DNA from: Patescibacteria group bacterium
GTDB taxonomy: Bacteria > Patescibacteriota > JABMPQ01 > JBFLZX01
Assembly (NCBI GenBank): GCA_040756075.1
Contig: JBFLZX010000001.1
Coordinates: 28,787 to 92,786 of the forward strand
Reading direction: 5' to 3'
Length of the DNA: 64,000 bases
Positions 1 to 43,708 of the stretch are shown in pieces; the stretch's first letter is position 1, and the number at the start of each line of letters is the position of its first letter. The translations under genes were made by a program, and so were the position numbers. The notes under the pieces were generated by a model. It saw only the letters and a program-made list of their open reading frames with translations. It ran no database searches and had not been told where the DNA came from.

Positions 1-1296
1 AATTTTTTTAATTTAGCAGTAAAACAGATTCCTAAGAAACAGTTTATCATATGGTTTGGAATTGCTGTTATATTAAGATTATTATTTTTATATATGACAA
101 TGCATGGGGATTTATTTTTTATTCATTATTATCCTACTAAATTAGGTACGCAAGGGCTTTTTGATATTTATCGGAATGGCAATATCTCAAGTTTGTATTA
201 TCCACCCTTAACTTATTTCTTTATAGGGGTTTATCAATTACTTTTAAAGCCATTTAATCCAGAGTTTTATAACTGGATACAAAATATATTTAATAGCAAT
301 GATGTAAGGGTATGGTTAGTTAATAATGGAATAAGCACAGAGTTTTTTAAGCAAATATTTTTTATGAAATTTCCTGTAGTAGTATTCGATTTCTTGTGTT
401 TTTTTATTATTTTAAGATATCTTGAAAAACCTTGTCATAAAAAAACAGCTTTAAAATTATGGAGCATTAATCCAGTTATTCTATACGGCATCTATGGATT
501 TGGGCAAATAGATATTATACCGGCGTTCTTCGCCGCATTATCTTTATTGTTAATCAAATATAAAAACGAATGGTGGGGATTTTTTTGTTTAAGCGTTGCT
601 GCTTTGTTTAAAACATTTACTATTTTTATGGTGTTGCCATTTTTAATATTATTAACTAGATCAAAAAGAGATTTATTCAAAAAATTACTCGCTTTGATTA
701 TTCCGTTTATTATTGTATTTTTGCCTTTACTTATTTCTAGCAAGGGCAGAATCCTGCGTTCAATATTTTTCGATCCGGGAGATAAATTAATTCCCTGTTT
801 AAGTTATTTGCAGAAATCGATTACCATTATATTTTTTATATTATTATATTATGTTGCTTATAAGCTAAGAGAAAAAGAAAAGAAAGACCATTGGTTATTA
901 ATGTTATCCATAGCTTCATTGATGATCCTCTATAGCGTAGCATTTATACCCGTGCATTATTTTATTTGGATTACTCCATTTCTAATTATAGCAGTTTCTG
1001 ATAATGCCTTTCCCTTAAAATTTTATTGGTTTCTTATTGTCCTTGTATTTTTGTATTGCTTGAATAGCCCAAACACAACTAGCAGGTTATTAATGCCTAT
1101 TAATCCTAAATTTTTTTATAAGTTTCCTAGCTTACCGGATTTAATGCATAAAATGCATATTAAATGGGGGGCTATTATGCTTTCAGCAAGATTGATTTTT
1201 ACGGCAAGCTGTGTATTAATTGCTTTTGAGCTTATTGGTGTAAGTTCAATCATAGAGCGTTTATTTAAAATTAAGATTGGATATAGGAAGGCATAA
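1..1296 (+). CDS. Polytopic membrane protein, putative GT-C-type glycosyltransferase (DUF2029/GT87-like). The 5' end lies outside the window.
   Basis: Frame 1 is open from nt 1 with no stop before the annotated ATG at 94, and the upstream translation (NFFNLAVKQIPKKQFIIWFGIAVILRLLFLY) is hydrophobic. The protein has many predicted TM helices and sits next to a GT2 polyprenyl-P-sugar synthase. Confidence 0.45.
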   Translation, partial: NFFNLAVKQIPKKQFIIWFGIAVILRLLFLYMTMHGDLFFIHYYPTKLGTQGLFDIYRNGNISSLYYPPLTYFFIGVYQLLLKPFNPEFYNWIQNIFNSNDVRVWLVNNGISTEFFKQIFFMKFPVVVFDFLCFFIILRYLEKPCHKKTALKLWSINPVILYGIYGFGQIDIIPAFFAALSLLLIKYKNEWWGFFCLSVAALFKTFTIFMVLPFLILLTRSKRDLFKKLLALIIPFIIVFLPLLISSKGRILRSIFFDPGDKLIPCLSYLQKSITIIFFILLYYVAYKLREKEKKDHWLLMLSIASLMILYSVAFIPVHYFIWITPFLIIAVSDNAFPLKFYWFLIVLVFLYCLNSPNTTSRLLMPINPKFFYKFPSLPDLMHKMHIKWGAIMLSARLIFTASCVLIAFELIGVSSIIERLFKIKIGYRKA

Positions 1297-2034
1297 TTGA
1301 AACTATCAGTTATAATACCAGCGCATAACGAAGAAGATTGTATTGAGAAAACTGTCTTAGACATTTCTGAAGAATTAAAAAAAGAATCTATAGATAACGA
1401 AATAATAATTGTTAATGATAACAGCACTGACAGAACCGTCTCTATAATTAATAATTTAGCTCAAGAGTATAATGATATACGGTTGATTAATAGGCAATCA
1501 CCTAATGGATTCGGCAGGGCAGTTAGAGAAGGGTTAGATAATGCAACCGGAGATGTGATTATAATTGCGATGGGTGATGCTTCAGATGACCCTAGGGATA
1601 TCGTGAAGTATTTTTATAAAATTGAAGAAGGGTATGACTGTGTTTTTGGTTCAAGGTTTATTAAGGGTGCCATGACAAGAGATTATCCATTTCATAAATT
1701 GATTGTAAACCGCATAGCAAATACTTTTTTAAGAATCCTTTTTTTAACCAAACACAATGATTTAACCAATGCTTTTAAAGCTTATCGTAGGGAAGTTATA
1801 GACGCTATTAAGCCGATAGAGTCGCTTTATTTTAATATTACCATAGAACTGCCCCTAAAAGCACTTATAAGAGGCTATTCTATTGCTTCAATGCCGACTA
1901 ATTGGTATGGCCGTAAAAGTGGTGTTTCTAAATTAAAAATTAAGGAAATGGGCAGGCGTTATCTTTATACAACACTATATCTATGGTTACAAAAGACACT
2001 TATTAGGGATGATATAAGGGATAAAAGGAAATGA
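1297..2034 (+). CDS. GT2 glycosyltransferase, DPM1/ArnC-like polyprenyl-phosphate sugar synthase
   Basis: The N-terminus SVIIPAHNEE, followed by IIVNDNSTD and a DxD-type region, matches GT-A fold dolichyl/undecaprenyl-phosphate sugar synthases. A TTG start sits right after the upstream stop. Confidence 0.7.
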   Translation: MKLSVIIPAHNEEDCIEKTVLDISEELKKESIDNEIIIVNDNSTDRTVSIINNLAQEYNDIRLINRQSPNGFGRAVREGLDNATGDVIIIAMGDASDDPRDIVKYFYKIEEGYDCVFGSRFIKGAMTRDYPFHKLIVNRIANTFLRILFLTKHNDLTNAFKAYRREVIDAIKPIESLYFNITIELPLKALIRGYSIASMPTNWYGRKSGVSKLKIKEMGRRYLYTTLYLWLQKTLIRDDIRDKRK

Positions 2035-3428
2035 ATATTATTTTGATTAGTCCTTCGCAAGGGGATGTCTATGGTAATTTCCAACCGCCTTATCATCCGT
2101 CGATAGGTTTAGGTTATATTGGGGCTGTTTTGGAGAAACAAGGCCATAATGTTAAGATAATTGATATTGATGCCGATAGAGTTACAGAAGACGATTTAAG
2201 AAAAAGAATAGTTGAGGATAAAATAGATTTAGCAGGGATTATGGTTTTAACTCCGATATTTACCAATGCCGTTAGAACCGCGCATATAATAAAAAAGTGT
2301 TCTAACGTTAAGGTTGTATTTGGGGGGATGCATCCGACTATTATGCCTCAAGATTGCTTAAAGATTAAAGATGTGGATTTTGTTGTCATTGGTGAAGGCG
2401 AGCAAACAATTTTAGAGCTAATTAATCAAATTCAGGGAGAGGGAAAATTCAAAGACGTTAAAGGCGTTGGTTTTAAGAAAGACGAAAAGATAATAATTAA
2501 TGAAAATAGACCATTAATCGAGGATTTGGATTCATTACCTTTTCCGGCAATGCGTTTATTTAATAATATAAAATATACTTACCCAGATGCAATTGCAAGC
2601 CCTACATTTCCGATTGTTACAAGTCGTGGTTGCCCTGGAACATGTACATATTGTAGTGCGCAAAGTATGTTTGGCAGGAAATTTCGGGCTCGTAGTGCGG
2701 TAAATATTGTTGATGAAATCGAAAAATTGATAAAAGATTTTGGTGTTAAAGAAGTGCATATTTGGGATGATAATTTCGTAACCATAAAAGAAAGAGTTTT
2801 AAAAGTAAGAGATGAAATTAAAAAGAGAGCTATTTTTATTAAGTTTGCATTTCCTAATGGGGTTAGGGCAGATTTTTTGGATAAAGATGTGATTGGCGCT
2901 CTCAAAGAAATGGGGACATATAGCATAGGCCTTGGTATAGAATCTGGGAATAACGAGATTTTACGGCGAGTCAAAAAAAACATTAATTTAGATAAGATTA
3001 AAGATGCTGTTAAGCTTGCGAAAAAATCAGGTATTGAGGTTTGGGGGTTTTTTATGCTTGGCCTTCCCGGTGAAACAAAAGAAACCGTCAATAATACTAT
3101 AAAATTTGCTATTGATTTAGATCCTGATATCGCAAAATTTCATATTTTAAAGCCTTATCCTGGGACGGAAGTTTTTAAAGAATTCGTAAATAATAATTTA
3201 ATTGATGATTTTGATTTTTCTCATTATGGTATCCATACAGGGCCGGTACACCATCTTAAAAATTTAGCCGTAGAGGAAATGAATTATCTTCAGCGCAGTG
3301 CTTATAAAAAATTTTATTTTAGGCCTTCAAAAATAATTAATCAAATAATAAGATTAAAATCATTCACTAGAATAAAATTAAATATAAAAGTATCGCTATC
3401 TGTTATAAGGAAAGCATTTACTAAATAA
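2031..3428 (+). CDS. B12-binding radical SAM protein (class B radical SAM, likely methyltransferase or related)
   Basis: The N-terminal roughly 150 aa are cobalamin-binding-like. The radical SAM cluster motif is RGCPGTCTYCS (CxxxCxxC). There is an ATGA overlap with the upstream gene. Confidence 0.75.
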   Translation: MNIILISPSQGDVYGNFQPPYHPSIGLGYIGAVLEKQGHNVKIIDIDADRVTEDDLRKRIVEDKIDLAGIMVLTPIFTNAVRTAHIIKKCSNVKVVFGGMHPTIMPQDCLKIKDVDFVVIGEGEQTILELINQIQGEGKFKDVKGVGFKKDEKIIINENRPLIEDLDSLPFPAMRLFNNIKYTYPDAIASPTFPIVTSRGCPGTCTYCSAQSMFGRKFRARSAVNIVDEIEKLIKDFGVKEVHIWDDNFVTIKERVLKVRDEIKKRAIFIKFAFPNGVRADFLDKDVIGALKEMGTYSIGLGIESGNNEILRRVKKNINLDKIKDAVKLAKKSGIEVWGFFMLGLPGETKETVNNTIKFAIDLDPDIAKFHILKPYPGTEVFKEFVNNNLIDDFDFSHYGIHTGPVHHLKNLAVEEMNYLQRSAYKKFYFRPSKIINQIIRLKSFTRIKLNIKVSLSVIRKAFTK

Positions 3429-3489
3429 TTATTTATTAATCCTAAACACTCAAGATGTCTCAAAATTTTTTATTCATGAATTTTAAAGA

Positions 3490-5007
3490 ATGAAGCATAC
3501 TTTGTTTACTTTATTTTTATTATCTTTTTTGCTTGGGATTATTCTGCGCATGATAAATATTAATCAACCATTGTTGGAATATAATACTACCAGGCAAGCC
3601 CAAACCGCTATGATAACTAAGAATTATATTTTAAATAAACTTCATTTTCTATATCCTACTATTTACAATTATTCCGGTGAGAATCCCACTTATCTTATGC
3701 AGGAATTCCCATTAATTACTGCCCCAGTTGCTATCGCATGCTATTTAATAGGTACAATCCCTGATTGGCTTCTTAGAATCCCTAGCTTGTTTTCATTTAT
3801 AATGGCTACATTTTTTTTATTTAAATTGGTAGAGTTATGTTGGAATCGAAAATTAGCAGTAATTTCTTCTTGTATTTTTATTTTTAGCCCTCTATCTATA
3901 TTAATGAGTAGAACATTTCAACCAGAAATGCCAATGCTATTTTTTCTATTAATGATGTTTTATTTCTTATGGAAATGGGTTTACGATGACAATATTTATA
4001 GTCTTATTTTTTCAGCATTCAGTTTTATGTGCTGCATTCTTTTGAAAGTAACGAATCTTTATTTGTTGCTGCCAATTTTATATATTATCTTATCAAATAA
4101 GAAAAAAATAGATTATCGCCTATTTAATTTTATAGTAGCATTTGTTTTAGCTTTTTTACCTGTATTATGGTGGTATGGTTATCATTGCCCAAAGATACGG
4201 CATTTGTTCCCAAACCAATACGATGTTATCTTTAATATTCACTATCAGACTATTTTTACTAAAAAATATCTAACAAATTTCAATTTTTATTTAAGGTTAA
4301 TTGTTCATATAATCAGGACAGCTTTTACTCCTTTAGTTTCCATTGCATTTATAATCGGATTATTAATTCGCCATAGGACTAATGAAGAAAAATTTTTATT
4401 TTTTTGGCTCTGCGGGGTAATTATTTTTTTATTATCTTTTCCTTCGGTAACGGACCATGAATATTATAAATTAGTAATTGTTCCAATAGGCGCCATATAC
4501 GCGGCTAGAGGCGTAAGTATCTTTTTAAATAAAAATAAAAATTATTTTAAATTAATAATAATTTATTCTAGTATACTTAGTTTTATTTTCTCGCTTAGGA
4601 TAGTTTATCCGTATCTTATAAATAAGGCTTATTTTAAAAATACCTTGCTTGCTGGAAAAGTTATAGATGAGGTTTCTTTTAAAGATGATTTGATTGTTGT
4701 TGCGCATGAATCCGGATCCGGATTGCTTTATTATTGCAATAGGAGAGGGTGGGGATTGAAAATTCCTGCGATTATTAAAAAGCGATGGGATAAAGATGCT
4801 TCTCCTAAGAATTTAGATGAACAAAACTATGAAGCTATTACTTCGTTAGAAGATTATCGGAGAAAAAATGCAAAGTATTTCGTTACCGTAGACATGGAAA
4901 AATTTAATAAAAGCCATAAATTCAGAGAATACATGTTTAAAAATTATATTTTATTAAGACATGAACCAGACAAATATATTATTTTTAAATTAGAAAACAA
5001 GAGGTAA
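3490..5007 (+). CDS. Polytopic membrane glycosyltransferase, GT-C fold (GT39/ArnT/PMT_2-like)
   Basis: About 11 TM helices with a C-terminal soluble domain. The architecture resembles 4-amino-4-deoxy-L-arabinose transferase and protein O-mannosyltransferase family members. Confidence 0.5.
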   Translation: MKHTLFTLFLLSFLLGIILRMININQPLLEYNTTRQAQTAMITKNYILNKLHFLYPTIYNYSGENPTYLMQEFPLITAPVAIACYLIGTIPDWLLRIPSLFSFIMATFFLFKLVELCWNRKLAVISSCIFIFSPLSILMSRTFQPEMPMLFFLLMMFYFLWKWVYDDNIYSLIFSAFSFMCCILLKVTNLYLLLPILYIILSNKKKIDYRLFNFIVAFVLAFLPVLWWYGYHCPKIRHLFPNQYDVIFNIHYQTIFTKKYLTNFNFYLRLIVHIIRTAFTPLVSIAFIIGLLIRHRTNEEKFLFFWLCGVIIFLLSFPSVTDHEYYKLVIVPIGAIYAARGVSIFLNKNKNYFKLIIIYSSILSFIFSLRIVYPYLINKAYFKNTLLAGKVIDEVSFKDDLIVVAHESGSGLLYYCNRRGWGLKIPAIIKKRWDKDASPKNLDEQNYEAITSLEDYRRKNAKYFVTVDMEKFNKSHKFREYMFKNYILLRHEPDKYIIFKLENKR

Positions 5008-5702
5008 TGATGCAATTAAGCCAAGAGAAGATGGTTGGGCGTTTAGGTAGATTCTTAGGCGATGTGCAGAGAATCCAGAACGAGGATATAATTAAACAAA
5101 TATCAGGAAATACTGTATTAGATGTTGGTTGTGGATATGGCGTTTTAACTAAACAATTAGCAGAAAAAAATAAATATAAATTGTTATTAGGAATAGACAG
5201 TGATACATTAGCTATAAATATAGCACGCAATTTATATAAAGATATTAATTTTAAAGAAATTGATTTATATGCTTTAAACCCTCTGCATAATAAATTTGAA
5301 ACCATAATTTTTCGTGAATCAATTCATCATTTAAATGTTGATAAGGCTTTATCATTCGCTAGGCAGATTTGTTCTAAAGAAATTATAATATTTGATCCAA
5401 ATCCTAATTTACTTCTTCGAATGTGTAGATATTTAATTGCGCACAAGGATGATGAAGCAAGATTAGGCGATATTATCACAAGTTGTAATAAAAACCATCT
5501 TAAAATAGAATCTATCAAATACAACAGTATCCTGGCCTTTCCTTTTTCTGGTGGATTTGTCGGAAAAGAAATATGCCCAAATATAAAATTTATTAAGAGG
5601 TCGATAATTTACATAGATTCTGTTTTAGTTAAATTCTTGCATTTCTTAGGTATTGATAGATATTTTTGTTGGCGTTATTTGGTAAAAATAAATATAAATT
5701 AA
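5007..5702 (+). CDS. Class I SAM-dependent methyltransferase
   Basis: SAM-binding motif I is VLDVGCGYGVLT, with an acidic residue at the end of beta2 (GIDSD). Confidence 0.7.
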   Translation: MMQLSQEKMVGRLGRFLGDVQRIQNEDIIKQISGNTVLDVGCGYGVLTKQLAEKNKYKLLLGIDSDTLAINIARNLYKDINFKEIDLYALNPLHNKFETIIFRESIHHLNVDKALSFARQICSKEIIIFDPNPNLLLRMCRYLIAHKDDEARLGDIITSCNKNHLKIESIKYNSILAFPFSGGFVGKEICPNIKFIKRSIIYIDSVLVKFLHFLGIDRYFCWRYLVKININ

Positions 5703-5716
5703 TATTAATAATTAAA

Positions 5717-6424
5717 ATGTTTTTATCGGTTATTATTCCCGCATTTAATGAAGAAAAGAGGCTAAAACAAACTCTTTGCCAGATATCTTCGTATCTTATT
5801 AAGGGGTATAAAGATTCTGAAATTATTATTGTTGACGATGGCTCTAATGATTGTACGTTTTTAGTAGCGAATGACTTTTCAAAAAATACCAATTTACCAG
5901 TAAAGGTATTAAAAAATATTATAAATTTAGGCAAAGGCGCTAGTGTGAAAAATGGTATACTTGTATCTTGCGGCGATTTTGTTCTTTTTAGTGACGCGGA
6001 TTTATCTACGCCGATAGAAGAATTGGATAAGCTCTTTAACTATATTAAAGATGGTTACGATATCATTATAGGTTCGCGAAGCAAAGAGGATTCAAGCGTT
6101 CAAATACATCAACCATGGTACAGGAAAAAGATGGGGAAAATATTTAATTTTCTTGTAAAATTATTATTATTAAAAGACTTTAATGATACTCAATGTGGTT
6201 TTAAGCTTTTTAAAGGTGATATCGCCAGGAAAATTGCAGGACTTATGCATATTAATGGATTTTGCTTTGATGTAGAGATGCTATATATTGCCCAAAAAAA
6301 TGGTTATAAAATAAAAGAGATAGGTGTTATTTGGAAAAATTCATCCCAAAGTAGAGTAGAAATATTAAATAGTTCATTAAGGATGTTTTTTGATCTTCTT
6401 AAGATTAAAAGGTTGCATATATAA
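5717..6424 (+). CDS. GT2 glycosyltransferase, CsbB/DPM1-like polyprenyl-phosphate sugar synthase
   Basis: MFLSVIIPAFNEEKRL, IIIVDDGSNDCT and DADLSTP motifs. I prefer the internal ATG at 5717 over the track start at 5666, because 5717 gives the canonical N-terminus and removes the overlap. Confidence 0.7.
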   Translation: MFLSVIIPAFNEEKRLKQTLCQISSYLIKGYKDSEIIIVDDGSNDCTFLVANDFSKNTNLPVKVLKNIINLGKGASVKNGILVSCGDFVLFSDADLSTPIEELDKLFNYIKDGYDIIIGSRSKEDSSVQIHQPWYRKKMGKIFNFLVKLLLLKDFNDTQCGFKLFKGDIARKIAGLMHINGFCFDVEMLYIAQKNGYKIKEIGVIWKNSSQSRVEILNSSLRMFFDLLKIKRLHI

Positions 6425-6467
6425 TAAATTTTTTATTACCCACAGACAGAAATTTTTAATTAATAAA

Positions 6468-8732
6468 ATGAGTACAATAAAAGATAATATATTATTTTTA
6501 TTCCTATTTTTTTTACTTACCTGTTTATTTTTCTGGAAAGTTTTTACATTACAGATGACATTTTTAACAGGTGATTATCTCCAGCAGTTTTTTCCTTGGA
6601 TGAATTTTTATGCCATGTCTATTAAAAATTTTAATATACCATTGTGGACAAAGCATATTCAATCTGGTTTTCCGTTGTTTGCAGAAGGCCAGTCAGGGAT
6701 GCTCTATCCGTTAAACGTTATCTTTTTTTATTTACTGCCTTTTAAAGTAGCCTATAATTATTCTTTTTTATTTCATTTTATTTTAGCCGGATTTTTTATG
6801 TATTTATATGTAAAGAAGATGGGTTCTAAAAAAAGCGGAGCATTTCTTGCAGCTATTATTTTATGCTTTGGTAGTGTGTATGCAGGGTCATTTATTAATA
6901 TCAATGCTCTAAAAACGCTATGTTTTTTTCCTGCAATTCTTTTTATTTTTGAGAATTATTTTAGTTATTATAAAAATATAAAATTATTTTTACTCATTGG
7001 GATTATTTGGGGAATACAGCTTTTATGTGGGTCTATTCAAATGGCATTCTACAGTATAGCACTCTGTTTATCCTATTTTTTTCTTAAGGCTTATTTGTTT
7101 AATCGATCAACCCTAAGGTATATTTTTATTTATTCTTTATTGGCAGGAATAATAGCGTTATTAATAGCCATGCCTCAACTTTATGCTACTCTTGAACTTA
7201 CAAAATATTCTATTAGATCTCATCAGACAATAGAATTTGCTTTATGGAATTCATTTTCACCGTTAGCTCTAACCGGTTTAATTTTTCCAATATTAGGATC
7301 TTTATTTATAAGGAACAATGTTGTATATATAAGCCTTATTGGATTTTTCTTTTTTATAGCGGCAGTTTTAAATTTTAAAAGAGATAAAATTATCAAATTT
7401 GTTGTTTTGTTGCTCTTGCTTGTTTTTTTCTTTGCTTTAGGCAAATACAATCCATTCTGTATTTTATTCTTTAAGTTAACAAGGATTTATTCTTTTAGAG
7501 GCCCATCAAAATTAATATATTTTATTGTTTTCTTTTCAGCGATATTAGTTGCTAAAGGTTTTACTTATTATTTCGATAGTAATTTAAGTAATTTATCTGA
7601 AAAAGTATATAAGATTTTTTCTGTTGCATTACTGATTGTGGCTGTTGTATTTTTATCACTAAAATTATTAGTTACAAAATATAGCCAAGAATTGTTAGTA
7701 ATACTAAAGAGATTTGTCGCTTATAATATTTACGGAAAATCTTTTCATCGTTATAGCTTACCTTTTTATTTAGAAAAAGTAGAGAGCAAGTTTATGGTTG
7801 TAAAAGAGAAGCTTCTTCTATCTTTCCCCTTTACTTTCTATGGAATTTGTATTATTTTTTGCATATTTATTTTCACATTTGTATTAACAAGATATGGCAA
7901 GAAGAATTTTTTAAAGTTTATGAGTATAGGGTTTATAGTTATTGATCTTTTTATATATAGTAATTTTTTTGAAGGACCGAGAACAAGCTTGAGTACGTTT
8001 GAAGCAATCAATATTAAGCAGCCCAAAATTTATAATATTTTGAAAAAAGATAAATCTATTTATCGTATATGCCCTTTTAGCATAGAAAAAAAACTGCCTG
8101 TTTGGGCATCATTTAATGCAAATATGATTTATGATTTAGATAGTATCGGTCTTTATAGCCCTCTTTCAAACGAAGATTATTTTTCAAAAGTAAGCATTCT
8201 TGGCGTTGTAGATGATTCTCTGGGTATTATCTCTCCTGGCGAGGCTGCCGTAGGAGCCAATAAAAAATTATTAGAACATCTTAATGTTAAATATATAGCC
8301 TCTTCAAAAAGGCTTAAGGATGATGATTTTGAAGAAATGTTAGAAGAAGAGGGGATTTATCTCTATAAGTTAAGTAATTTTAAGCCAAGATTCATATTTT
8401 CTGCTTCATTGGATGATATTAATAAGAAGCAAGGAAGTGTAGATATTATTGAATATAATTCCGGCACTGCTAAAATTTTAATTAATGCTTATAGCGATGG
8501 TTATTTAATATTTTCTGAAAAATTTTATCCTGGCTGGAAAGTGTTTATTGATGGCGCGAAAGAAGAAATAATAAAAGTCAATGATATTTTAATGGGTACC
8601 AAAATAAATAAAGGAAGACATTCTGTTTTATTTAGTTTTAAGCCCGACTATTTCTACCCTATGTTATTTTTCTCCCTAGCGATTTTATTTTTAATTTCTA
8701 TCATTATCTGTTATGACAGAAAAAAAATATAG
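6468..8732 (+). CDS. Large polytopic membrane protein, YfhO-like GT-C glycosyltransferase
   Basis: The protein is about 750 aa, with at least 12 TM helices and a C-terminal extracytoplasmic domain. It sits immediately downstream of a CsbB-like GT2, which is the csbB-yfhO arrangement known from Firmicutes. The start is taken at the internal ATG MSTIKDN at 6468. Confidence 0.5.
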   Translation: MSTIKDNILFLFLFFLLTCLFFWKVFTLQMTFLTGDYLQQFFPWMNFYAMSIKNFNIPLWTKHIQSGFPLFAEGQSGMLYPLNVIFFYLLPFKVAYNYSFLFHFILAGFFMYLYVKKMGSKKSGAFLAAIILCFGSVYAGSFININALKTLCFFPAILFIFENYFSYYKNIKLFLLIGIIWGIQLLCGSIQMAFYSIALCLSYFFLKAYLFNRSTLRYIFIYSLLAGIIALLIAMPQLYATLELTKYSIRSHQTIEFALWNSFSPLALTGLIFPILGSLFIRNNVVYISLIGFFFFIAAVLNFKRDKIIKFVVLLLLLVFFFALGKYNPFCILFFKLTRIYSFRGPSKLIYFIVFFSAILVAKGFTYYFDSNLSNLSEKVYKIFSVALLIVAVVFLSLKLLVTKYSQELLVILKRFVAYNIYGKSFHRYSLPFYLEKVESKFMVVKEKLLLSFPFTFYGICIIFCIFIFTFVLTRYGKKNFLKFMSIGFIVIDLFIYSNFFEGPRTSLSTFEAINIKQPKIYNILKKDKSIYRICPFSIEKKLPVWASFNANMIYDLDSIGLYSPLSNEDYFSKVSILGVVDDSLGIISPGEAAVGANKKLLEHLNVKYIASSKRLKDDDFEEMLEEEGIYLYKLSNFKPRFIFSASLDDINKKQGSVDIIEYNSGTAKILINAYSDGYLIFSEKFYPGWKVFIDGAKEEIIKVNDILMGTKINKGRHSVLFSFKPDYFYPMLFFSLAILFLISIIICYDRKKI

Positions 8733-9837
8733 TTTTAAAAAAATACTGGCCAGAATTATTATTGTTATCATTATTTTTTTTATTTTTACGGGATTTTTAT
8801 TTATTATTTCTGAGTTCTCTTATAGGTTGTTTAAGGTGATAAAGCTTGTATTTGAGAAGACATATAGTGTTAAAAATCAGGCCTGGAGAGAATATGATCC
8901 ATTGCTCGGTTGGATTAATAAGCCAAGTACCGATATTTCTATTGATCTTGGGGAAGGAAAAAAGCACGTCTTCATTGATTCCTATGGCTTTCGGAATACA
9001 CCAAAAAATCATGTTTATTACAGGGATTTAAGATATGATAAAATAATTGCTTTGGGAGATTCATTCACTTTTGGCTATGGGGTTAATAATGATGAAACTT
9101 GGCCATTTTATTTAGAGAAACAACTTAGAGCAAAGGATAGAAAAGTTCAAGTTATAAATATGGGTTGCACTGCTTATGGATTAGACCAAGAGTTTCTATG
9201 GTTTAGGCGAGATGGGCTTAAGTTCAAAAGTAAGATTGTTATTCTTGGATTACTTGATATTAGTTTTTCAAGAGCTACATTATCTCGCTGGATACAAGGT
9301 GAGAATAAGCCTAAATTTAAGATTTCTAATGGTAAATTAATACTTGCTAATATTCCCGTGCCAAAACCAAGCAGAGTCGGATCTATACGGATTTCAAAAT
9401 CTGATATTCCTGATATATTATTTAATTGGAGGGGAAGTTATATTATGTCTTTTTTACGAGATAGATTTTATCGCCTTAATTTATTATTCATGAAAAAACT
9501 TCCTGAATGCTCCGAATCTTTTTATCTAGGAAAAGCACTGCTTAGAGAATTAAATTTACTTTGTAATCAAAATAATATTAAATTAATAATTCTATTAATT
9601 CCTAAAAGAGAATGGGAGAATAATTTACCTGCTATTTATTATTCTATGAAGGATTTGAAAAACGAACTTAGTATTGATATAATTGATACTATTGAGTTAT
9701 TCAATGCAGATAATTTAAAATGGCAATATTTATATGATGGCAGTGGCCATTTTTCTGCCGAAGGCAATAAAATTGTAGCAAATTATGTTTATGAATATTT
9801 AGCGAAGAATAATTTTTTTGCTTTATATGCTAATTAA
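8713..9837 (+). CDS. SGNH/GDSL-family hydrolase with an N-terminal membrane anchor (putative glycan O-acetylesterase/acyltransferase)
   Basis: An N-terminal TM helix, then SGNH block I (IIALGDSFTFGYGV) and a further GxND-like block. Confidence 0.65.
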   Translation: MTEKKYSFKKILARIIIVIIIFFIFTGFLFIISEFSYRLFKVIKLVFEKTYSVKNQAWREYDPLLGWINKPSTDISIDLGEGKKHVFIDSYGFRNTPKNHVYYRDLRYDKIIALGDSFTFGYGVNNDETWPFYLEKQLRAKDRKVQVINMGCTAYGLDQEFLWFRRDGLKFKSKIVILGLLDISFSRATLSRWIQGENKPKFKISNGKLILANIPVPKPSRVGSIRISKSDIPDILFNWRGSYIMSFLRDRFYRLNLLFMKKLPECSESFYLGKALLRELNLLCNQNNIKLIILLIPKREWENNLPAIYYSMKDLKNELSIDIIDTIELFNADNLKWQYLYDGSGHFSAEGNKIVANYVYEYLAKNNFFALYAN

Positions 9838-9888
9838 TATTCTATAAAATATTAATAATTTTAATCAGCATAGTTATTAGGAGGCACA

Positions 9889-12069
9889 ATGAAAAAAGTT
9901 TTACTAACTGGTGGAGCTGGTTATTTAGGTTCTATTCTATCAAGAAAACTGATTGAGAAAGGCTATCAAGTAAAATGTTTTGATAAGATGTATTTCGGTG
10001 AAAGTTCTATTAAGCAATTAATACCCCATAAGGATTTTGAATTGATTAATGGCGATATCCAAAAATTAGATGCATATTCTAATCTTTTAGATGGTGTTAA
10101 CGCAGTTATACATTTAGCCGGCCTTGCTAATGATCCGACGGCAGAACTCGATCCCGAGCTCACTCAATTGATAAATTATAGATCATCTTATTTATTGGCT
10201 AAGATGGCTAAAGAAAGAGGGGTTGAGCGTTTTATTTATGCTTCAAGTTGTAGCGTCTACGGGAAGGGGCTGTTGGATGTTGTTAGCGAAGAGACGCCAT
10301 TAAATCCTGTATCGGTTTATGCTGAATCAAAAATGCGTGCCGAAAATGAAATTATAAAGATGGTGGATGAAAAATTTTGCCCTATATTTCTAAGACAGGC
10401 TACCCTTTATGGCGTTTCTTGGCGTATGCGTTTTGATTTAGCAATTAATTTAATGGTTTTACACGCAATTCTTAGTAAAAAAATCTTTATTTGGGGCGGT
10501 GGGACTCAGTGGAGGCCTTTTTTGCACGTTGAAGATGCCGCAGAAGCGTTTATAACTTGTTTAGAGCAACCTAGAGATAATGTTGCTGGAAAAATTTATA
10601 ATGTTGGATCTACGGAGAATAATTATAAAATAATAGATTTAGCAAAAATCGTTCAAGACAACATTAAGGGTGTTCAATTAGACATAATTCCTGACAATCC
10701 GGACAAACGCAGCTATAGAGTTTGTTGTGACAAGATTAGCAAGGAATTGAATTGGCATCCCAGGAGAACAATTGAGGATGGTATAAAGGAGCTAATCGGA
10801 TTTATTGAAAAAAATAAACAAAAAACTAATTTCGAAGATTATTATTATTATAATATTAAGACACTTCAGCGTTTCTTAAAAACACCTGTAATAGAGAATG
10901 GCGATCCGATTAGAGCAGACGAGTTACCGTTTAATAGGCCCAGCATAGGTAAAGAAGAGGAAGAAGAAGTTTTAGATACTCTTCGTTCGGGATGGTTAAC
11001 GACTGGTCCAAAAGTTAATACATTAGAAGAAATGTTTAAAAGATATATTGGAGTTAAGCATGCCGTTTGCGTTAGTTCTTGTACTGCGGCCCTACACCTT
11101 AGCTTAGCCGTTTTAGATATTAAGGATGGAGACGAAGTTATTACTTCGCCAATAACATGGCCGGCTACTGCTAATGTAATAGTTCATGTAGGGGCAACTC
11201 CAGTTTTTGCTGATGTGAATCGCCGCACTCTTAATATTGACCCCCAAGAGATCGAATCAAAAATTACAAAAAAAACGAAGGCGATTATACCGGTACATGT
11301 AGCAGGACAGCCATGTGAAATGGATAAAATCAATCAAATTGCTAAAAAATATAATCTTCATGTAATTGAAGATGCGGCACATGCCATAGGCGCTTTTTAT
11401 AATTCGCAACAAATAGGCACAATTAGTGATTTTACTTGTTTTAGTTTTTATCCGATTAAAAATATAACTACTATTGAAGGAGGGCTCGTAGTTACTAATA
11501 ATAATGAATGGGCGAAAAAATTAAGAATTTATAGTTTGCATGGAGTAACTAATGATGCATGGAATAGATATGCTACTAAATCCAAAGGAATTCATGAGGT
11601 CGTATATCCAGGATTTAAATATAATATGAGCGATATACAAGCTTCTCTTGGAATACACCAGCTGAAGAAACTCAAGACATTTATTAAACAAAGAAAAGAA
11701 ATAATAGAGCAATATAATAATAGTTTTAGTCAGATTGAAGAGATTATTTTTCCCCAACCTATTCATAATATACAACATGCAAATCATCTTTATATTATAA
11801 TATTAGATATTGATAAATTGAAGATTGACAGAGATAGGTTTATTGAAGCCTTAAAGAGCGAAAATATAGGCGTGGGCGTTCATTTTCGTTCATTGCATAT
11901 GCAGCCATACTATAGGAATAGATTTAGTTTTAAAGATGATTATTTTCCTTCAGCAAAGTATCTAAGCGATAGAATCCTTTCATTGCCTTTATACCCTGCC
12001 ATGAATCAACGCGATGTAGATACAGTTATAAAAGCCGTTATAAAACTAGTTAATTACTATAGAAAATGA
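9889..12069 (+). CDS. Bifunctional fusion of an NAD-dependent sugar-nucleotide epimerase/dehydratase (extended SDR) and a DegT/DnrJ/EryC1-family PLP aminotransferase
   Basis: N-terminus: LLTGGAGYLGS Rossmann motif and YAESK catalytic dyad. C-terminal roughly 390 aa: DegT-family pattern (SGWLTTGPKV ... CTAALHLSL ... SFYPIKNITTIEGG). A strong AGGAGG RBS lies upstream. Confidence 0.75.
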   Translation: MKKVLLTGGAGYLGSILSRKLIEKGYQVKCFDKMYFGESSIKQLIPHKDFELINGDIQKLDAYSNLLDGVNAVIHLAGLANDPTAELDPELTQLINYRSSYLLAKMAKERGVERFIYASSCSVYGKGLLDVVSEETPLNPVSVYAESKMRAENEIIKMVDEKFCPIFLRQATLYGVSWRMRFDLAINLMVLHAILSKKIFIWGGGTQWRPFLHVEDAAEAFITCLEQPRDNVAGKIYNVGSTENNYKIIDLAKIVQDNIKGVQLDIIPDNPDKRSYRVCCDKISKELNWHPRRTIEDGIKELIGFIEKNKQKTNFEDYYYYNIKTLQRFLKTPVIENGDPIRADELPFNRPSIGKEEEEEVLDTLRSGWLTTGPKVNTLEEMFKRYIGVKHAVCVSSCTAALHLSLAVLDIKDGDEVITSPITWPATANVIVHVGATPVFADVNRRTLNIDPQEIESKITKKTKAIIPVHVAGQPCEMDKINQIAKKYNLHVIEDAAHAIGAFYNSQQIGTISDFTCFSFYPIKNITTIEGGLVVTNNNEWAKKLRIYSLHGVTNDAWNRYATKSKGIHEVVYPGFKYNMSDIQASLGIHQLKKLKTFIKQRKEIIEQYNNSFSQIEEIIFPQPIHNIQHANHLYIIILDIDKLKIDRDRFIEALKSENIGVGVHFRSLHMQPYYRNRFSFKDDYFPSAKYLSDRILSLPLYPAMNQRDVDTVIKAVIKLVNYYRK

Positions 12070-13769
12070 AAAAAGACCCAAGTAAAATACTAATCTTAAT
12101 AATCATCATAGGAGCTATAGTAAGAATTTTAGGCGTAAATTTTGGGCTCCCTTTTATATATCACAATGATGAAAAGATAATTGTGAATTATGCGCTTGCT
12201 TACGGCGCAGGAGACCTGAACCCACATTTCTTTAAGATTCCGCCTTTATTGTCTTATTTTCTATTTTTTCTTTACGGGATTTTTTATATAGCGGGGAAAA
12301 TTTTAGGCATTTTTAATTCTATTAGTGAATTCGGATACCTTTTTTTAAATAATCCAACCAGTTTTTTTATTATTGGTAGATTTTTTGCTGGAGTTATTCC
12401 AGGCATTCTGTCAATTCCCCTGATATTTTATTTAGCAGAAAGAGCATTTTCAAGACGCGTTGCAATATTTGCGTCACTTTTCTTATCGCTTAATTTTTTA
12501 CACGTCAGAGATTCTCACTATATTTATTGCGATATACTCTTAGTTTTTTTTATCCTCCTATTTTTTATATGGCTTTTTAAAATTTTTGAGAAAAATCGAA
12601 CAAGCGACTATTTTGTCACTGCATTAATTATCGGTATAGCTACATCAATAAAATATAACGGAATACTATTATTTATTCCTTTTCTACTTATAATTTTACG
12701 CAATAAAGCCTTTTTTAAAGATAGCAATATAGTTTTGTTTAAAAGATTATTTGGAATAGGGTTATTTTATCCCATCGCTTTATTCTTTAGCAATCCGTAT
12801 ATGTTTCTAGATTATAAATTTTTCTTTAATGATATTTCAAGAATGCCTTTTTATAATCCCGGATTTTTTTATCACTTAAAAGTATCTATTGTTGGAGGAT
12901 GCGGCCTATTAATATTTCTTTTTTCTATAGGCGGCTTTACAATAGCCATTTTTAAGAAACATTTTTTTGCTATTACACTTGGTTTCTTTGGCTTAATTTA
13001 TTATTTTATTGTTGCTAGGCTTAGCCAATCGGCAGAGAGATATATTCTTCCACTTATTCCCGCTATATTATTATTTGCGGCATATTTTCTTGATTACATT
13101 ATTCAGAAAGTAAAAGCAGTTAAAGCGCAATTAATTCTCTCTGTTTTATTTTGTATAATATTACTTACACCTTCTTTGTTTAAAATATATAAATCTGATA
13201 AGCTTTTTACTATGGATGATACGCGTACACAAGCTTATGAATGGATTAAGAAAAACATTCCATTTAATACTAAGATCGCTGTCGATTCAACCGGGTCAAT
13301 ATACCCAGTATTAAGACAATCAAAGGAATTTATTGATATCAATGTAAAAAATTTCAAAAAAGAAAAATTTCGGAAACCAGAAGGTTCTTTAGATTATAAA
13401 ATAGAACTTATAAAAAATAATCCTTATTATGATAATACTTATAGGATTTATTATTTAAAAAAAAGCATAGGCCAAAAAGGATTCTTTTTATCATTCCCTG
13501 AAGTAGAGTTAAATATAGATCAAATCAAGACTAAAGGGATTGAATATATAGTTGTTTCGACTTTACTTATTAGCAATACCGGAAAAAAATTTTTACCAGT
13601 ACTAGAAAAAAATACTAATTTAATTAAAGAATTCTCTCCATATAATAAATCTATTTCTAAATTAATTCCTGATGAGCTTACTGTTTTACCTGCTGCAGCT
13701 TTTACATACCGAGAGTTAAAGGATAGAGACAGGTTTGGTCCAGTAATTAGAATCTATAAGTTTAAGTAG
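12066..13769 (+). CDS. Polytopic membrane glycosyltransferase, GT-C fold (GT39/PMT_2, ArnT-like)
   Basis: Multi-TM protein. A DE-type motif in the first extracytoplasmic loop (HNDEKII) is typical of the ArnT/PMT family. There is a C-terminal soluble domain. Confidence 0.6.
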   Translation: MKKDPSKILILIIIIGAIVRILGVNFGLPFIYHNDEKIIVNYALAYGAGDLNPHFFKIPPLLSYFLFFLYGIFYIAGKILGIFNSISEFGYLFLNNPTSFFIIGRFFAGVIPGILSIPLIFYLAERAFSRRVAIFASLFLSLNFLHVRDSHYIYCDILLVFFILLFFIWLFKIFEKNRTSDYFVTALIIGIATSIKYNGILLFIPFLLIILRNKAFFKDSNIVLFKRLFGIGLFYPIALFFSNPYMFLDYKFFFNDISRMPFYNPGFFYHLKVSIVGGCGLLIFLFSIGGFTIAIFKKHFFAITLGFFGLIYYFIVARLSQSAERYILPLIPAILLFAAYFLDYIIQKVKAVKAQLILSVLFCIILLTPSLFKIYKSDKLFTMDDTRTQAYEWIKKNIPFNTKIAVDSTGSIYPVLRQSKEFIDINVKNFKKEKFRKPEGSLDYKIELIKNNPYYDNTYRIYYLKKSIGQKGFFLSFPEVELNIDQIKTKGIEYIVVSTLLISNTGKKFLPVLEKNTNLIKEFSPYNKSISKLIPDELTVLPAAAFTYRELKDRDRFGPVIRIYKFK

Positions 13770-13782
13770 AAGATATTTGTAA

Positions 13783-14553
13783 ATGTATATTTCCGTAGTT
13801 ATTCCAATATATAATGAAGAGGGCAGCATAAATACTCTTTATAATAGGCTGAGTAGGGTCATGGAAGGCATTCATCTTGAATACGAGATAATTTTTATTG
13901 ACGATGGCTCAAATGATGACTCTTTGAAATTAATAAGATCTATTATAAATAATGATAATAAAGTAAAGGCGATCTCTTTTGATAAAAATTATGGGCAACA
14001 TCCAGCGGTAATAGCTGGTTTTGAAAAAGCGCAAGGTAAATTTATAGTTACGCTTGATGCAGATTTACAGAATCCCCCGGAAGAAATTCCCAAGCTCATT
14101 GATGCGATAAATGACGGATATGATATGGTAAGCGGAATTAGGGTATTGAGAAAGGATAATAATTTTAGACAGTTATCTTCAGCTTGTTCAAATATATTTT
14201 TAAATTTACTGACAAGAAGCCATATCAATGATTACGGAACTATGCTGCGTGTTTTTAAAAAAGAATTTGCAAAAAAGATGAGCATTCATTATAGAAGAAA
14301 TAGGCTTTATATACCAGTATTAATTAATACCCTTACTAATAACATTCTAGAAATTGAGTTAAGCCATGAAAATCGTTTTGCCGGTGAATCAAAATATGCA
14401 TTTTTTAAATTGATAAAGACATTTATTTCTATAGTTATACGGTATCATCGAGGTTTTACAGCATTCCTTAAATTTTTTCATATAATAAAAGAGGACGATG
14501 TGCTTTATAGAGTTAAAGAGCAAATAGAAATACAAAAAAGTAGACATATATAA
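13783..14553 (+). CDS. GT2 glycosyltransferase, ArnC/GtrB-like polyprenyl-phosphate sugar synthase
   Basis: SVVIPIYNEEGSI, IIFIDDGSNDDS and DADLQNPPEEIPKL motifs match ArnC/GtrB. Confidence 0.75.
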   Translation: MYISVVIPIYNEEGSINTLYNRLSRVMEGIHLEYEIIFIDDGSNDDSLKLIRSIINNDNKVKAISFDKNYGQHPAVIAGFEKAQGKFIVTLDADLQNPPEEIPKLIDAINDGYDMVSGIRVLRKDNNFRQLSSACSNIFLNLLTRSHINDYGTMLRVFKKEFAKKMSIHYRRNRLYIPVLINTLTNNILEIELSHENRFAGESKYAFFKLIKTFISIVIRYHRGFTAFLKFFHIIKEDDVLYRVKEQIEIQKSRHI

Positions 14554-14555
14554 AT

Positions 14556-19318: not shown

Positions 19319-19320
19319 TT

Positions 19321-20421: not shown

Positions 20422-20422
20422 T

Positions 20423-36098: not shown

Positions 36099-36105
36099 TT
36101 TTGTT

Positions 36106-37608: not shown

Positions 37609-37669
37609 TTTTTATCCAGTTGTTGAAATATTAAGAATAATAATAGTGTTTGGAAAGGAGTTTTGGATT

Positions 37670-38395: not shown

Positions 38396-38420
38396 ACGAA
38401 ACCACATCGAAGGAGAAAAA

Positions 38421-39176: not shown

Positions 39177-39185
39177 AAGGAGAAA

Positions 39186-39968: not shown

Positions 39969-39972
39969 CTAT

Positions 39973-41478: not shown

Positions 41479-41479
41479 G

Positions 41480-43702: not shown

Positions 43703-43708
43703 CATATT

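Follow-up and report, generated by a model that had tools for sequence, protein, structure and literature searches.

Three adjacent genes in a 64-kb stretch of DNA (hereafter the window) from an uncultured, Omnitrophota-like bacterium encode a short GT2, a YfhO-family GT-C and an SGNH-fold protein. Does this trio represent the CsbB-YfhO pathway of Firmicutes, extended with an O-acyl esterase or transferase? Such was the reading of a preliminary description, whose observation was correct and whose interpretation is partly supported by the analysis given here.

The trio within a surface-glycan island

The three open reading frames are real (Table 1), and their lengths are not a product of chance in DNA of 27-29% GC. 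In GenBank, three successive proteins of a single 109,970-bp contig have exactly the same sequences as their products: MEW6407097.1 ("dolichyl-phosphate beta-glucosyltransferase"), MEW6407098.1 ("YfhO family protein") and MEW6407099.1 ("hypothetical protein"). The GT2 and YfhO genes are separated by 43 nt, while the YfhO and SGNH genes overlap by 20 nt. This packing is tight and operon-like, and no terminator-like sites were found between the trio genes on the + strand.

A very large surface-glycan island spans the entire window, and the trio forms one of its arms. The island contains at least six GT-C genes and several short GT2 genes, and it further encodes GT4s as well as nonulosonic-acid and sulfation enzymes. 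The nearest relatives are found in Omnitrophota, a phylum of the PVC group. The upstream arm (94-5007) recurs as the same block upstream of YfhO in two related loci, L001 and L008. The GT2 of the trio (GT2b) is directly preceded by a methyltransferase gene; in the loci L006 and L007 a methyltransferase also adjoins the SGNH gene. Downstream of the trio, the SDR-DegT fusion is of the type involved in amino-sugar nucleotide synthesis and belongs to the same conserved cassette, its orthologues adjoining the cassette in L007, L025 and L027. The two PMT_2-type GT-Cs that follow are orthologues of those which in Omnitrophota usually lie directly upstream (12066-13769) and directly downstream (15320-16993) of YfhO. 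With its ArnB-like fusion, short GT2 and ArnT-like GT-Cs, this adjacent cassette resembles the ArnA/B/C/T system. However, the match to ArnB reaches 428 bits against a cut-off of 631, ArnD, ArnE and ArnF are absent, a GNAT takes the place of the formyltransferase, and nothing points to lipid A as the acceptor.

Table 1. Features of the window discussed in the text, with the basis of each assignment.
Feature	Position	Strand	Basis
GT87-like GT-C	94-1296	+	Pfam
Short GT2 (GT2a)	1297-2034	+	Pfam
B12-binding radical SAM protein	2031-3428	+	Pfam
PMT_2 GT-C	3490-5007	+	Pfam
Class I SAM methyltransferase	5007-5702	+	Pfam
Short GT2 (GT2b), GT-A fold, 235 aa, no membrane helix	5717-6424	+	Pfam, NCBIfam, PDB matches
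YfhO-family GT-C, 754 aa	6468-8732	+	Pfam PF09586, AF2 model, Foldseek
SGNH/GDSL-fold protein, 374 aa, one N-terminal membrane helix	8713-9837	+	Pfam, AF2, hydrophobicity
SDR epimerase/dehydratase fused to DegT/ArnB-like aminotransferase	9889-12069	+	Pfam, NCBIfam
PMT_2-type GT-C	12066-13769	+	Pfam PMT_2 (1.7e-13), synteny
Second short GT2 (GT2c), 256 aa, no membrane helix	13783-14553	+	Pfam, no TM segment
GNAT N-acetyltransferase, cytoplasmic	14556-15323	+	Pfam Acetyltransf_1 (2.4e-16)
PMT_2-type GT-C	15320-16993	+	Pfam, synteny
Wzx-like polysaccharide flippase	36070-37608	+	Pfam Polysacc_synt_3, Polysacc_synt
LPG_synthase_TM (MprF flippase-like) membrane protein	54130-55071	+	PF03706 (3.8e-24)

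The glycosyltransferase pair

The second gene of the trio matches the YfhO profile PF09586 with 43.2 bits, against a cut-off of 28.5 (E 2.5e-11). The match spans the last 82 residues only, and homology of the N-terminal part is transitive: PF09586 is matched by 46 of 51 aligned relatives, three of which match the N-terminal 600 positions of the profile. The AF2 model (pLDDT 93) finds its top Foldseek matches in STT3, ArnT, AftD, AftA and EmbC. It predicts some 13 membrane helices in the N-terminal part, an outside domain of roughly 230 aa whose end is a beta-sandwich, and one last membrane helix at residues 729-753. This architecture agrees with the topology published for B. subtilis YfhO, where the last of 13 helices is preceded by a large loop (2018 YfhO paper), although the outside domain is smaller than the 389 aa of the CsbB/GtcA/YfhO system. 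With the Pfam threshold passed, a GT-C fold and a YfhO architecture, the assignment to the YfhO family is supported, and the lack of similarity to YfhO profiles that was to refute the earlier reading is not observed. Asp36 (nt 6573-6575), a candidate catalytic residue, belongs to the first outside loop; at least 90% of the 51 sequences keep it, as do all of the closest 26. Arg250 (nt 7215-7217) is invariant among the aligned relatives.

GT2b carries a Glycos_transf_2 domain (PF00535, E 9.3e-28) with the DxD motif D93-A-D95 (nt 5993-6001), and is predicted to be a polyprenyl-phosphate hexose synthase. It is not CsbB-like in architecture, since no hydrophobic segment was found in its 235 residues, CsbB having two C-terminal membrane helices, and since its best solved match is an archaeal DPM synthase (PDB 5mlz, 4.5e-20). 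ArnC (2.4e-15) and GtrB (2.6e-12, catalytic domain only) also match. Among NCBIfam models there are partial matches to PgfS, ArnC-type proteins and PpgS, the last aligning end to end, all scoring far under the equivalog cut-offs. GT2b is thus of the short helix-less type and not CsbB/GtrB-like. Enzymes of this type, helix-less GT-As of about 230-260 aa, are paired with GT-Cs in several known systems: DPM1/DPMS, ALG5, mycobacterial PpgS with Rv3779, and streptococcal GacI(/GacJ) with GacL. Unlike in the last of these, a small membrane partner resembling GacJ was not found.

Consequently, the "CsbB-YfhO-like pair" of the preliminary description holds in so far as a YfhO-family GT-C adjoins a GT2 of the polyprenyl-phosphate-sugar-synthase class, and CsbB/YfhO-style logic, with a lipid-linked sugar built inside and transferred outside, is therefore a fair analogy. 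The architecture of the GT2 does not fit. CsbB/GtcA/YfhO systems attach GlcNAc to lipoteichoic acid in B. subtilis and S. aureus, and act on wall teichoic acid in Listeria. By contrast, no GtrA/GtcA-type flippase gene is present in the window, YfhO has other GT-Cs around it instead of forming a two-gene operon, and the host is Omnitrophota-like, with no known teichoic-acid acceptor.

The pair had also been deemed unexpected outside Firmicutes, which is contradicted by the distribution of YfhO. A genome scan found 151 relatives. The labels of the 80 loci retained include Omnitrophota, Latescibacterota, Gemmatimonadota, Anaerolineae, Planctomycetota and other non-Firmicutes. Close relatives fill Omnitrophota, with remoter ones in Latescibacterota, Gemmatimonadota and Chloroflexota, and the family had already been listed in Actinobacteria and Bacteroidetes (2018 YfhO paper). 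The conserved order in Omnitrophota is GT2 - PMT_2 - YfhO - PMT_2. In 45 Omnitrophota-type loci, PMT_2 abuts YfhO in 32 and GT2 in 6, a GT2 lying within 8 kb in 37.

The SGNH protein and its neighbours

The third protein matches Lipase_GDSL_2 (42.4 bits, cut-off 32.9). It is membrane-anchored, as described earlier, because its single hydrophobic segment (residues 5-38) coincides with a helix in the AF2 model (8-47), and its catalytic domain is predicted to lie outside the cytoplasm. The catalytic Ser-His-Asp set is found in part: Ser117 (nt 9061-9063) and His346 (nt 9748-9750) are invariant, but the canonical Asp (DxxH) is not conserved in the clade of the window protein, nor is the block-III Asn. 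Family-specific conserved residues are Glu34 (at the membrane interface), Asp62, Gly66-Trp67, Arg94 and Asn149, and homologues from distant phyla have the same N-terminal motifs.

In its fold, its conserved Ser and His, its helix anchor and its outside domain, the protein resembles the SGNH-like members of AlgI/AlgJ/AlgX, PatA/PatB and DltB/DltD. AlgX has a permuted catalytic order (Asp-x-His...Ser), while that of the window protein is the ordinary Ser...His. No Pfam match to DltD or AlgX was found in it, though some relatives match the AlgX model. No MBOAT or AT3 acyl-donor partner was found in the window; the protein may therefore rely on an MBOAT whose gene lies elsewhere, or it may be a deacylase. 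Its structural neighbours include PatB, OatA and Ape1. The closest solved structure is CgnD (PDB 8a2n), an SGNH-fold hydrolase of crocagin biosynthesis; this soluble, slow leader peptidase of a peptide natural-product pathway has neither a membrane anchor nor a glycan context, and as a peptidase rather than a carbohydrate esterase it argues against an acyl-ester role.

The order GT2-YfhO-SGNH, taken earlier as a module, is not conserved. SGNH directly abuts YfhO in none of the 45 Omnitrophota-type loci and lies within 8 kb in 2 of them by the first search, or about 6 after iterative search. Since it is absent from most Omnitrophota cassettes and its position shifts, the SGNH gene is accessory. 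It could even be an unrelated gene carried along in a hypervariable cassette for surface polysaccharides, with another substrate, so that adjacency to YfhO says nothing of function. We regard this as the most serious alternative, albeit one with a clear minority of the probability. It fits with L027, which has the window order GT2b-YfhO-[SDR/DegT]-PMT_2-GT2c-GNAT-PMT_2 without SGNH, with the differing SGNH positions in the window, L006, L007 and L171, with 80 metagenome loci of the broader SGNH family, whose neighbours are heterogeneous and include no YfhO, and with a preprint reporting that polysaccharide cassettes vary by strain in Omnitrophota. On the other hand, among those four loci, the closest SGNH relatives with context, three place SGNH at most one gene from YfhO. 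Likewise, of the 28 distant loci, which are labelled Latescibacterota, Gemmatimonadota or Planctomycetota or else are unclassified, 17 carry an SGNH homologue no more than 200 bp from YfhO, abutting or overlapping it on the same strand, as in the window. The SGNH-YfhO association is thus not random.

A proposed pathway and its alternatives

We propose, with moderate confidence, that the trio acts as follows. On the inner side of the membrane, GT2b would use a nucleotide sugar to form a polyprenyl-phosphate hexose, as its family suggests. The lipid-linked sugar would then be flipped. The Wzx-like protein is a candidate for this step, and we infer a second in the LPG_synthase_TM protein, whose gene adjoins another PMT-type GT-C and GT2. 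The YfhO-family GT-C, its fold and family being established, would move the sugar onto an acceptor outside the cytoplasm via the first outside loop with Asp36. This acceptor, be it glycan, lipid or protein, is probably also decorated by the PMT_2 GT-Cs at 12066 and 15320. Finally, judging from its fold, its topology and the genes around it, the tethered SGNH protein would add or remove an acyl ester on the same glycan or on the lipid-linked precursor. Systems of this general kind have been reviewed, helix-less GT-A and Wzx flippase variants among them (PMC8035078).

A possible coupling of glycosylation to O-acylation is favoured by the metagenome contig L171, with the order MBOAT-SGNH (45% identity)-YfhO (36%)-GT2b (45%), by L036 (SGNH-SGNH-MBOAT-x-YfhO), and by the tight SGNH-YfhO pairs of distant phyla. 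In L171, L036 and L130 the SGNH relative directly follows a DltB-like MBOAT; in L006 the order is YfhO-PMT_2-SGNH. Against coupling stand the missing acyl donor in the window and the non-canonical Asp and Asn positions.

The acceptor could instead be protein (pilins, S-layer or giant surface proteins), glycosylated by YfhO and its PMT_2 neighbours. A preprint calls PgfM1/M2 of the S. mutans Pgf system highly homologous to YfhO and PgfS GtrB-like, the flanking GT-Cs match PMT/PMT_2 protein-mannosyltransferase profiles, and next after the SGNH-YfhO pair of Latescibacterota comes a TMEM260-like protein O-mannosyltransferase with TPR repeats. We consider this unlikely: PMT_2 is a broad family to which ArnT-like transferases of lipids and glycans also belong, the Wzx, GT4, nonulosonic-acid and sulfation enzymes of the island typify polysaccharide synthesis, and no acceptor protein is evident.

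Still less probable is true teichoic-acid tailoring of the Firmicute type, in which YfhO would glycosylate a polyol-phosphate acceptor and SGNH, with an MBOAT, would esterify it, as an analogue of CsbB/YfhO plus DltB/DltD. The L171 arrangement recalls such a module, DltD being likewise helix-anchored and of the general SGNH fold, and there is a weak TagF-like match (Glyphos_transf, 27.9 bits, cut-off 22.1) at 44595-45953, near cytidylyltransferase genes. TagF-like enzymes also build capsules in Gram-negative bacteria, however, and no teichoic acid is known in Omnitrophota, the PVC-group phylum of the nearest relatives. DltA, DltC and LtaS are absent from the regions scanned, the SGNH protein lacks a DltD match, and the L171 MBOAT reaches 169 bits where the DltB cut-off is 375.

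We give very little credence to carrier recycling, in which SGNH would act on the outer side of the membrane and cleave polyprenyl-phosphate sugars that have stalled: a dedicated hydrolase has precedent in B. subtilis UshA, which rescues cells running CsbB without YfhO, and the tethered position, the interfacial Glu34 and the missing acyl donor would suit it, but UshA is a cytoplasmic alpha/beta hydrolase and the adjacent MBOATs of relatives indicate acyl chemistry. SGNH substrates are carboxyl esters, thioesters and amides; to cleave a phosphodiester would be without known precedent.

Our findings indicate that the trio combines a known kind of two-step trans-membrane sugar-attachment system with a membrane-anchored esterase-like enzyme, a fairly ordinary part of its island, and that the MBOAT-SGNH pairing seen in its relatives is the classic two-part design of O-acylation.

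The three genes and their products

All three adjacent ORFs reported in the preliminary description were recovered with exactly the same boundaries. Their products are identical to three consecutive GenBank entries, all on a contig of 109,970 bp that bears the label 'Patescibacteria group bacterium'; GenBank thus corroborates the gene calls independently, and the assignment to YfhO was public beforehand. In the window, which has about 30% GC and carries every sizeable gene on the + strand, the trio is packed like an operon. GT2b, a short glycosyltransferase gene, lies 43 nt ahead of the YfhO-family gene, the latter overlaps the SGNH gene by 20 nt, and no terminator-like site was found on the + strand between the trio genes. 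Promoter and terminator scans gave counts equal to the shuffled expectation in this AT-rich DNA and were uninformative, and the tRNA and Rfam scans returned no matches.

Trio genes and other features of the glycan island (window positions)
Feature	Position	Strand	Description
GT2b	5717-6424	+	ORF, 235 aa; MEW6407097.1, 'dolichyl-phosphate beta-glucosyltransferase'
YfhO-family protein	6468-8732	+	754 aa from an ATG inside a longer TTG ORF; MEW6407098.1, 'YfhO family protein'
SGNH protein	8713-9837	+	ORF, 374 aa; MEW6407099.1, 'hypothetical protein'
GT-C genes	starts 94, 3490, 6468, 12066, 15320, 55064	+	at least six in window
Short GT2s			three in window, plus several further GT2 and GT4 genes
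SDR fused to ArnB-like aminotransferase
GNATs
B12-binding radical SAM enzymes	2031-3428, 24716-26185, 28057-29508, 39973-41478, 49428-50879		five
PAPS synthesis genes			fused to sulfatase-family domain
NeuB/CMP-sugar pathway, Wzx-like flippase, carbamoyltransferase, polysaccharide deacetylase
RtcB RNA ligase	52015-53505		2.4e-83; mid-island, between GT4 and thymidylate-kinase-like genes
518-aa protein	61231-62787		N-terminal hexapeptide-repeat acyltransferase domain; C-terminal domain with weak GH88/pectate-lyase matches

The Pfam profile, NCBIfam and PDB homologues served as the basis of comparison with Firmicute YfhO and CsbB. The YfhO likeness claimed for the middle gene held: its product matched PF09586 above threshold (43.2 bits, E = 2.5e-11; gathering threshold 28.5), the match spanning only the last 82 residues (654-735, profile positions 752-834 of 835). 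Three relatives, P0039, P0048 and P0068, align over 96-98% of the window protein (E = 8e-78, 5e-31 and 8e-15, respectively) and match PF09586 at positions 2-598, and the profile is matched by 46 of the 51 aligned relatives. By this transitive evidence, the N-terminal multi-helix domain is homologous to the YfhO-family membrane domain. An AF2 model built on the 51-sequence alignment was confident (pLDDT 93, pTM 0.92). In it, helices run as far as residue 498, and the chain then forms an outside domain (about 500-728) with a beta-sandwich at its end, before a final helix at 729-753. B. subtilis YfhO has 13 helices and a large loop before the last one (2018 YfhO paper). The model shows the same layout: it has about 13 membrane helices, and a large outside domain separates the last from the one before it. 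This domain measures about 230 aa, shorter than the 389 aa in B. subtilis. Sequence, profile and fold searches of the PDB copy found no solved YfhO structure, only fold-level GT-C matches; the best solved Foldseek matches were all GT-Cs, namely STT3 (2e-4), ArnT (3e-4), AftD, AftA, EmbC and DPY19. Asp36, in the first outside loop just after helix 1 (within TGDYLQQFFPW), is kept by at least 90% of the 51 sequences and by all of the 26 closest, and Arg250 is invariant. By inference, Asp36 would be the first choice for a catalytic base and Arg250 for a phosphate ligand.

GT2b had been called CsbB-like. The GT2 catalytic domain is indeed present (PF00535, Glycos_transf_2, 9.3e-28), with a DxD motif at D93-A-D95, but the two C-terminal membrane helices are not. 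CsbB and its relatives consist of a GT-A domain tethered by these helices (2018 YfhO paper), and proteins of the CsbB/GtrB type measure about 310-340 aa, whereas GT2b has 235 aa and, like the window's two other short GT2s, no hydrophobic segment. Its best solved relative is the P. furiosus dolichol-phosphate mannose synthase (4.5e-20), followed by ArnC (2.4e-15) and by GtrB (2.6e-12), the last over the catalytic domain only (residues 3-132). Among the NCBIfam models, PgfS (positions 1-177 of 308) and those of the ArnC type matched partially and the 226-aa PpgS model matched end to end, all with scores far under the equivalog cut-offs. The absence of the C-terminal helices places GT2b in the short DPM1/ALG5/PpgS/GacI kind, and as such it would work like a polyprenyl-phosphate sugar synthase. 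This short GT2 variant is explicitly covered by a review of multi-component transmembrane glycosylation systems (PMC8035078).

The third protein has the SGNH fold, and its description as membrane-anchored was borne out. It carries one N-terminal hydrophobic segment (residues 5-38) preceded by a Lys/Arg-rich N-terminus, from which the catalytic domain is predicted to lie outside the cytoplasm. The proposed check of the Ser-His-Asp residues gave a divided answer, with Ser and His conserved but not Asp. In 28 sequences, block I (G115-D116-S117) and the block V His, H346, do not vary; in a set of 49 homologues, G115, S117, H346 and N149 are invariant and D116 is kept in 48. The canonical DxxH Asp is absent from the window protein, which reads YDGSGH with an Asp at -4 that varies within its clade, and the block III GxND Asn is absent as well (LLDIS). 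Distant relatives retain GNDL and D-S-H-W and match the AlgX Pfam model. The pattern is compatible with a Ser-His dyad enzyme, which the protein probably is. Among solved structures, the slow peptidase CgnD, a hydrolase, is nearest. The window protein matches neither the DltD nor the AlgX Pfam model and was therefore rejected as a member of both; a 374-aa unannotated protein from L001, a related locus, proved not to be an SGNH homologue. Outside the generic SGNH core, E34, D62, G66-W67 and R94 are family-specific and highly conserved. Glu34 (window 8812-8814), located where the one membrane helix ends on the outer side, is kept in 47 of 49 family members, and the other residues sit in a beta-rich segment ahead of the core. 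As a set, these positions point to a specific contact close to the membrane, made either with a lipid-linked substrate or with a partner protein.

A larger conserved cassette in a glycan island

The trio had been likened to a Firmicute module. The window proteins were compared with the six-frame ORFs of 80 loci from related genomes, kept out of 151 relatives found in a scan of one genome per species that was run with an alignment narrower than the 51-sequence one. The arrangement conserved in Omnitrophota is GT2b - PMT_2 (12066 type) - YfhO - PMT_2 (15320 type). Among the 45 Omnitrophota-type loci, YfhO is directly abutted by a PMT_2 gene in 32 and by a GT2 gene in 6, and has some GT2 within 8 kb in 37. 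One locus, L027, keeps the order of the window (GT2b-YfhO-SDR/DegT-PMT_2-GT2c-GNAT-PMT_2, GT2c being a second short GT2) without an SGNH gene. The trio is thus a local form of a conserved cassette that extends beyond it, and is no module of its own. Across L008-L071, compared with window 5717-16993, Omnitrophota share a block in which one short GT2 gene accompanies three GT-C genes; by analogy with mycobacterial arabinan and mannan assembly, this hints at one lipid-linked sugar feeding three outside transferases. Locus L005 also has MptA_B-family GT-Cs.

The closest YfhO homologues (40-53% identity) and SGNH homologues (44-57%) come from metagenome contigs and MAGs and, where an organism is named, from Candidatus Omnitrophota, a PVC-group phylum. 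The labels of the 80 loci include Omnitrophota, Latescibacterota, Gemmatimonadota, Anaerolineae, Planctomycetota, Coatesbacteria and others, and members in Actinobacteria and Bacteroidetes had already been noted (2018 YfhO paper). With this spread, a YfhO-family gene outside Firmicutes is not surprising, contrary to the initial expectation. The source contig bears a Patescibacteria label, whereas its closest named relatives by YfhO, SGNH and cassette order are Omnitrophota MAGs, several of which are labelled 'uncultured Planctomycetia'. These taxonomic labels look unreliable.

All 64 kb of the window form a glycan island. Its five B12-binding radical SAM enzymes may serve sugar C-methylation or other radical sugar chemistry; in the relatives, too, such genes adjoin GT2 and GT-C genes. 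The genes at 17165-21385 encode a 717-aa fusion of a sulfatase-family domain and APS kinase, then ATP sulfurylase and then a protein of 325 aa comprising only a pyruvate-kinase barrel. The same three-gene set occurs in L007 and related sulfation genes in L003 and L004, which points to sulfation of the glycan by an unusual transferase. The segment 37646-43702 encodes two cytidylyltransferases, an HpcH aldolase, a D-2-hydroxyacid dehydrogenase and an HAD phosphatase, and downstream, at 44595-45953, lies a weak match to TagF-like CDP-glycerol glycerophosphotransferase (PF04464, 27.9 bits; cut-off 22.1 bits). Genes of the 37646-45953 region may make a phosphodiester-linked polymer.

The SGNH-YfhO neighbourhood and its possible acylation partners

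Four loci, including the window, combine the closest SGNH relatives with usable context. The order is YfhO-SGNH in the window, YfhO-PMT_2-SGNH-methyltransferase in L006 and PMT_2-methyltransferase-SGNH-GT2c-GNAT-PMT_2 in L007. The fourth, the metagenome contig L171, carries on one strand (1-6908) the end of a PMT_2 gene, a DltB-like MBOAT, SGNH, YfhO, GT2b and a methyltransferase; its SGNH, YfhO and GT2b proteins are 45%, 36% and 45% identical to those of the window. This contig resembles DltB/DltD and YfhO/CsbB placed in one operon, DltA and DltC being absent. A further locus, L036, reads SGNH-SGNH-MBOAT-x-YfhO.

In a more distant group (Latescibacterota, Gemmatimonadota, Planctomycetota and unclassified), SGNH lies at most 200 bp upstream of YfhO on the same strand, often overlapping it, in 17 of 28 loci. 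These pairs come from about 17 species-level genomes (L060-L062, L064, L069, L070, L072-L075, L078, L081-L087; about 6700-10400 in each locus) and encode helix-anchored SGNH proteins of 373-423 aa with the GNDL and D-S-H-W motifs and the AlgX match. No GT2 or MBOAT was found within 8 kb of the 17 pairs; in L083 a TMEM260-like GT-C with TPR repeats follows the pair. Elsewhere, SGNH homologues adjoin a PMT_2 GT-C (L088), lie near a GT2 and a methyltransferase (L089), or are found 4 kb from YfhO (L090). The idea that the SGNH family in general adjoins YfhO was rejected: in 80 metagenome loci of its GDSFTFGY branch, retrieved with an alignment narrower than the 28-sequence SGNH one, no neighbour matches the YfhO profile. 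Only about 10 of these have a polytopic membrane neighbour by a crude helix count, and most of the contigs searched are short.

Overall, a functional link of the SGNH protein to the GT-C module is likely, though not obligatory. Most Omnitrophota cassettes have no SGNH gene, and the gene could be a passenger in a variable cassette, which is unlikely. Also of low probability is the strongest form of the link, in which the helix-anchored SGNH protein would be a dedicated partner of YfhO-type GT-Cs across Omnitrophota, Latescibacterota and Gemmatimonadota, phyla of Gram-negative type, editing the lipid-linked donor, or the acceptor, on the extracytoplasmic side as an obligatory step coupled to glycosylation. 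By analogy with ArnD or a deacetylase of the PpgS pathway, it might take off an acyl group once the donor is flipped, or it might add one together with a DltB-like MBOAT.

The MBOATs found alongside SGNH in L171, L036 and L130 are DltB-like, scoring 169 bits against a DltB cut-off of 375 bits and matching the DltB structure 6bug at 1.5e-30. An MBOAT and an outside-facing, helix-anchored SGNH-like protein form the classic O-acylation design, as in AlgI/AlgJ, PatA/PatB and DltB/DltD. This finding in relatives supports the suggested coupling of polymer decoration to O-acetylation. The window itself has no such partner: Pfam detected no MBOAT (PF03062) or AT3 (PF01757) in its 59 large + strand ORFs, and tblastn and jackhmmer with the L171 MBOAT found nothing there. 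Since the window has neither, and since the solved structure closest to the SGNH protein belongs to a hydrolase, this protein may use a partner encoded elsewhere, or may be a deacylase whose substrate is the glycan or else the lipid-linked sugar once flipped.

Proposed pathway and significance

The trio belongs to a known kind of system, multi-component transmembrane glycosylation by a GT-A enzyme, a flippase and a GT-C, and its central gene is already annotated. From its family, GT2b would make a polyprenyl-phosphate hexose, which a flippase would then move across the membrane. Tentative candidates for the latter are a Wzx-like gene at 36070 and an LPG_synthase_TM gene at 54130; no GtrA-like gene was found near the trio, where there is no room for one. 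The YfhO protein, probably with the two PMT_2 GT-Cs, would transfer the sugar to an extracytoplasmic acceptor, as its fold and family suggest, and the SGNH enzyme, from its fold, topology and neighbourhood, would acylate or deacylate the resulting product. An improbable alternative is O-glycosylation of proteins, for which the Pgf system is the model. A true teichoic-acid-like acceptor, for which the only support is the TagF-like match, is very unlikely, and a role of the SGNH protein in carrier-lipid recycling, as performed by UshA, is hardly to be expected.

Current knowledge stays in place, since the YfhO call is already in GenBank and decoration of surface polymers by GT-A/GT-C systems is well known in Gram-positive and Gram-negative bacteria. 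No paper containing both 'YfhO' and 'SGNH' was found in the literature searched, so the SGNH-YfhO neighbourhood and the MBOAT-SGNH-YfhO-GT2 arrangement are modest, apparently undescribed leads. In the latter form, a dedicated partnership, if true, would resemble a fused 'Dlt-plus-CsbB/YfhO' tailoring unit outside Firmicutes. Omnitrophota, which have not been cultured, are very small and may depend on hosts. The window shows them devoting at least 64 kb to a glycan island that draws heavily on lipid-linked monosaccharides as donors and on numerous GT-Cs, as is best known for the way mycobacteria assemble arabinan and mannan. The SGNH-YfhO neighbourhood, sometimes accompanied by a DltB-like MBOAT, offers a concrete, testable lead on how glycosylation and acylation of an envelope polymer might be coordinated outside Firmicutes.
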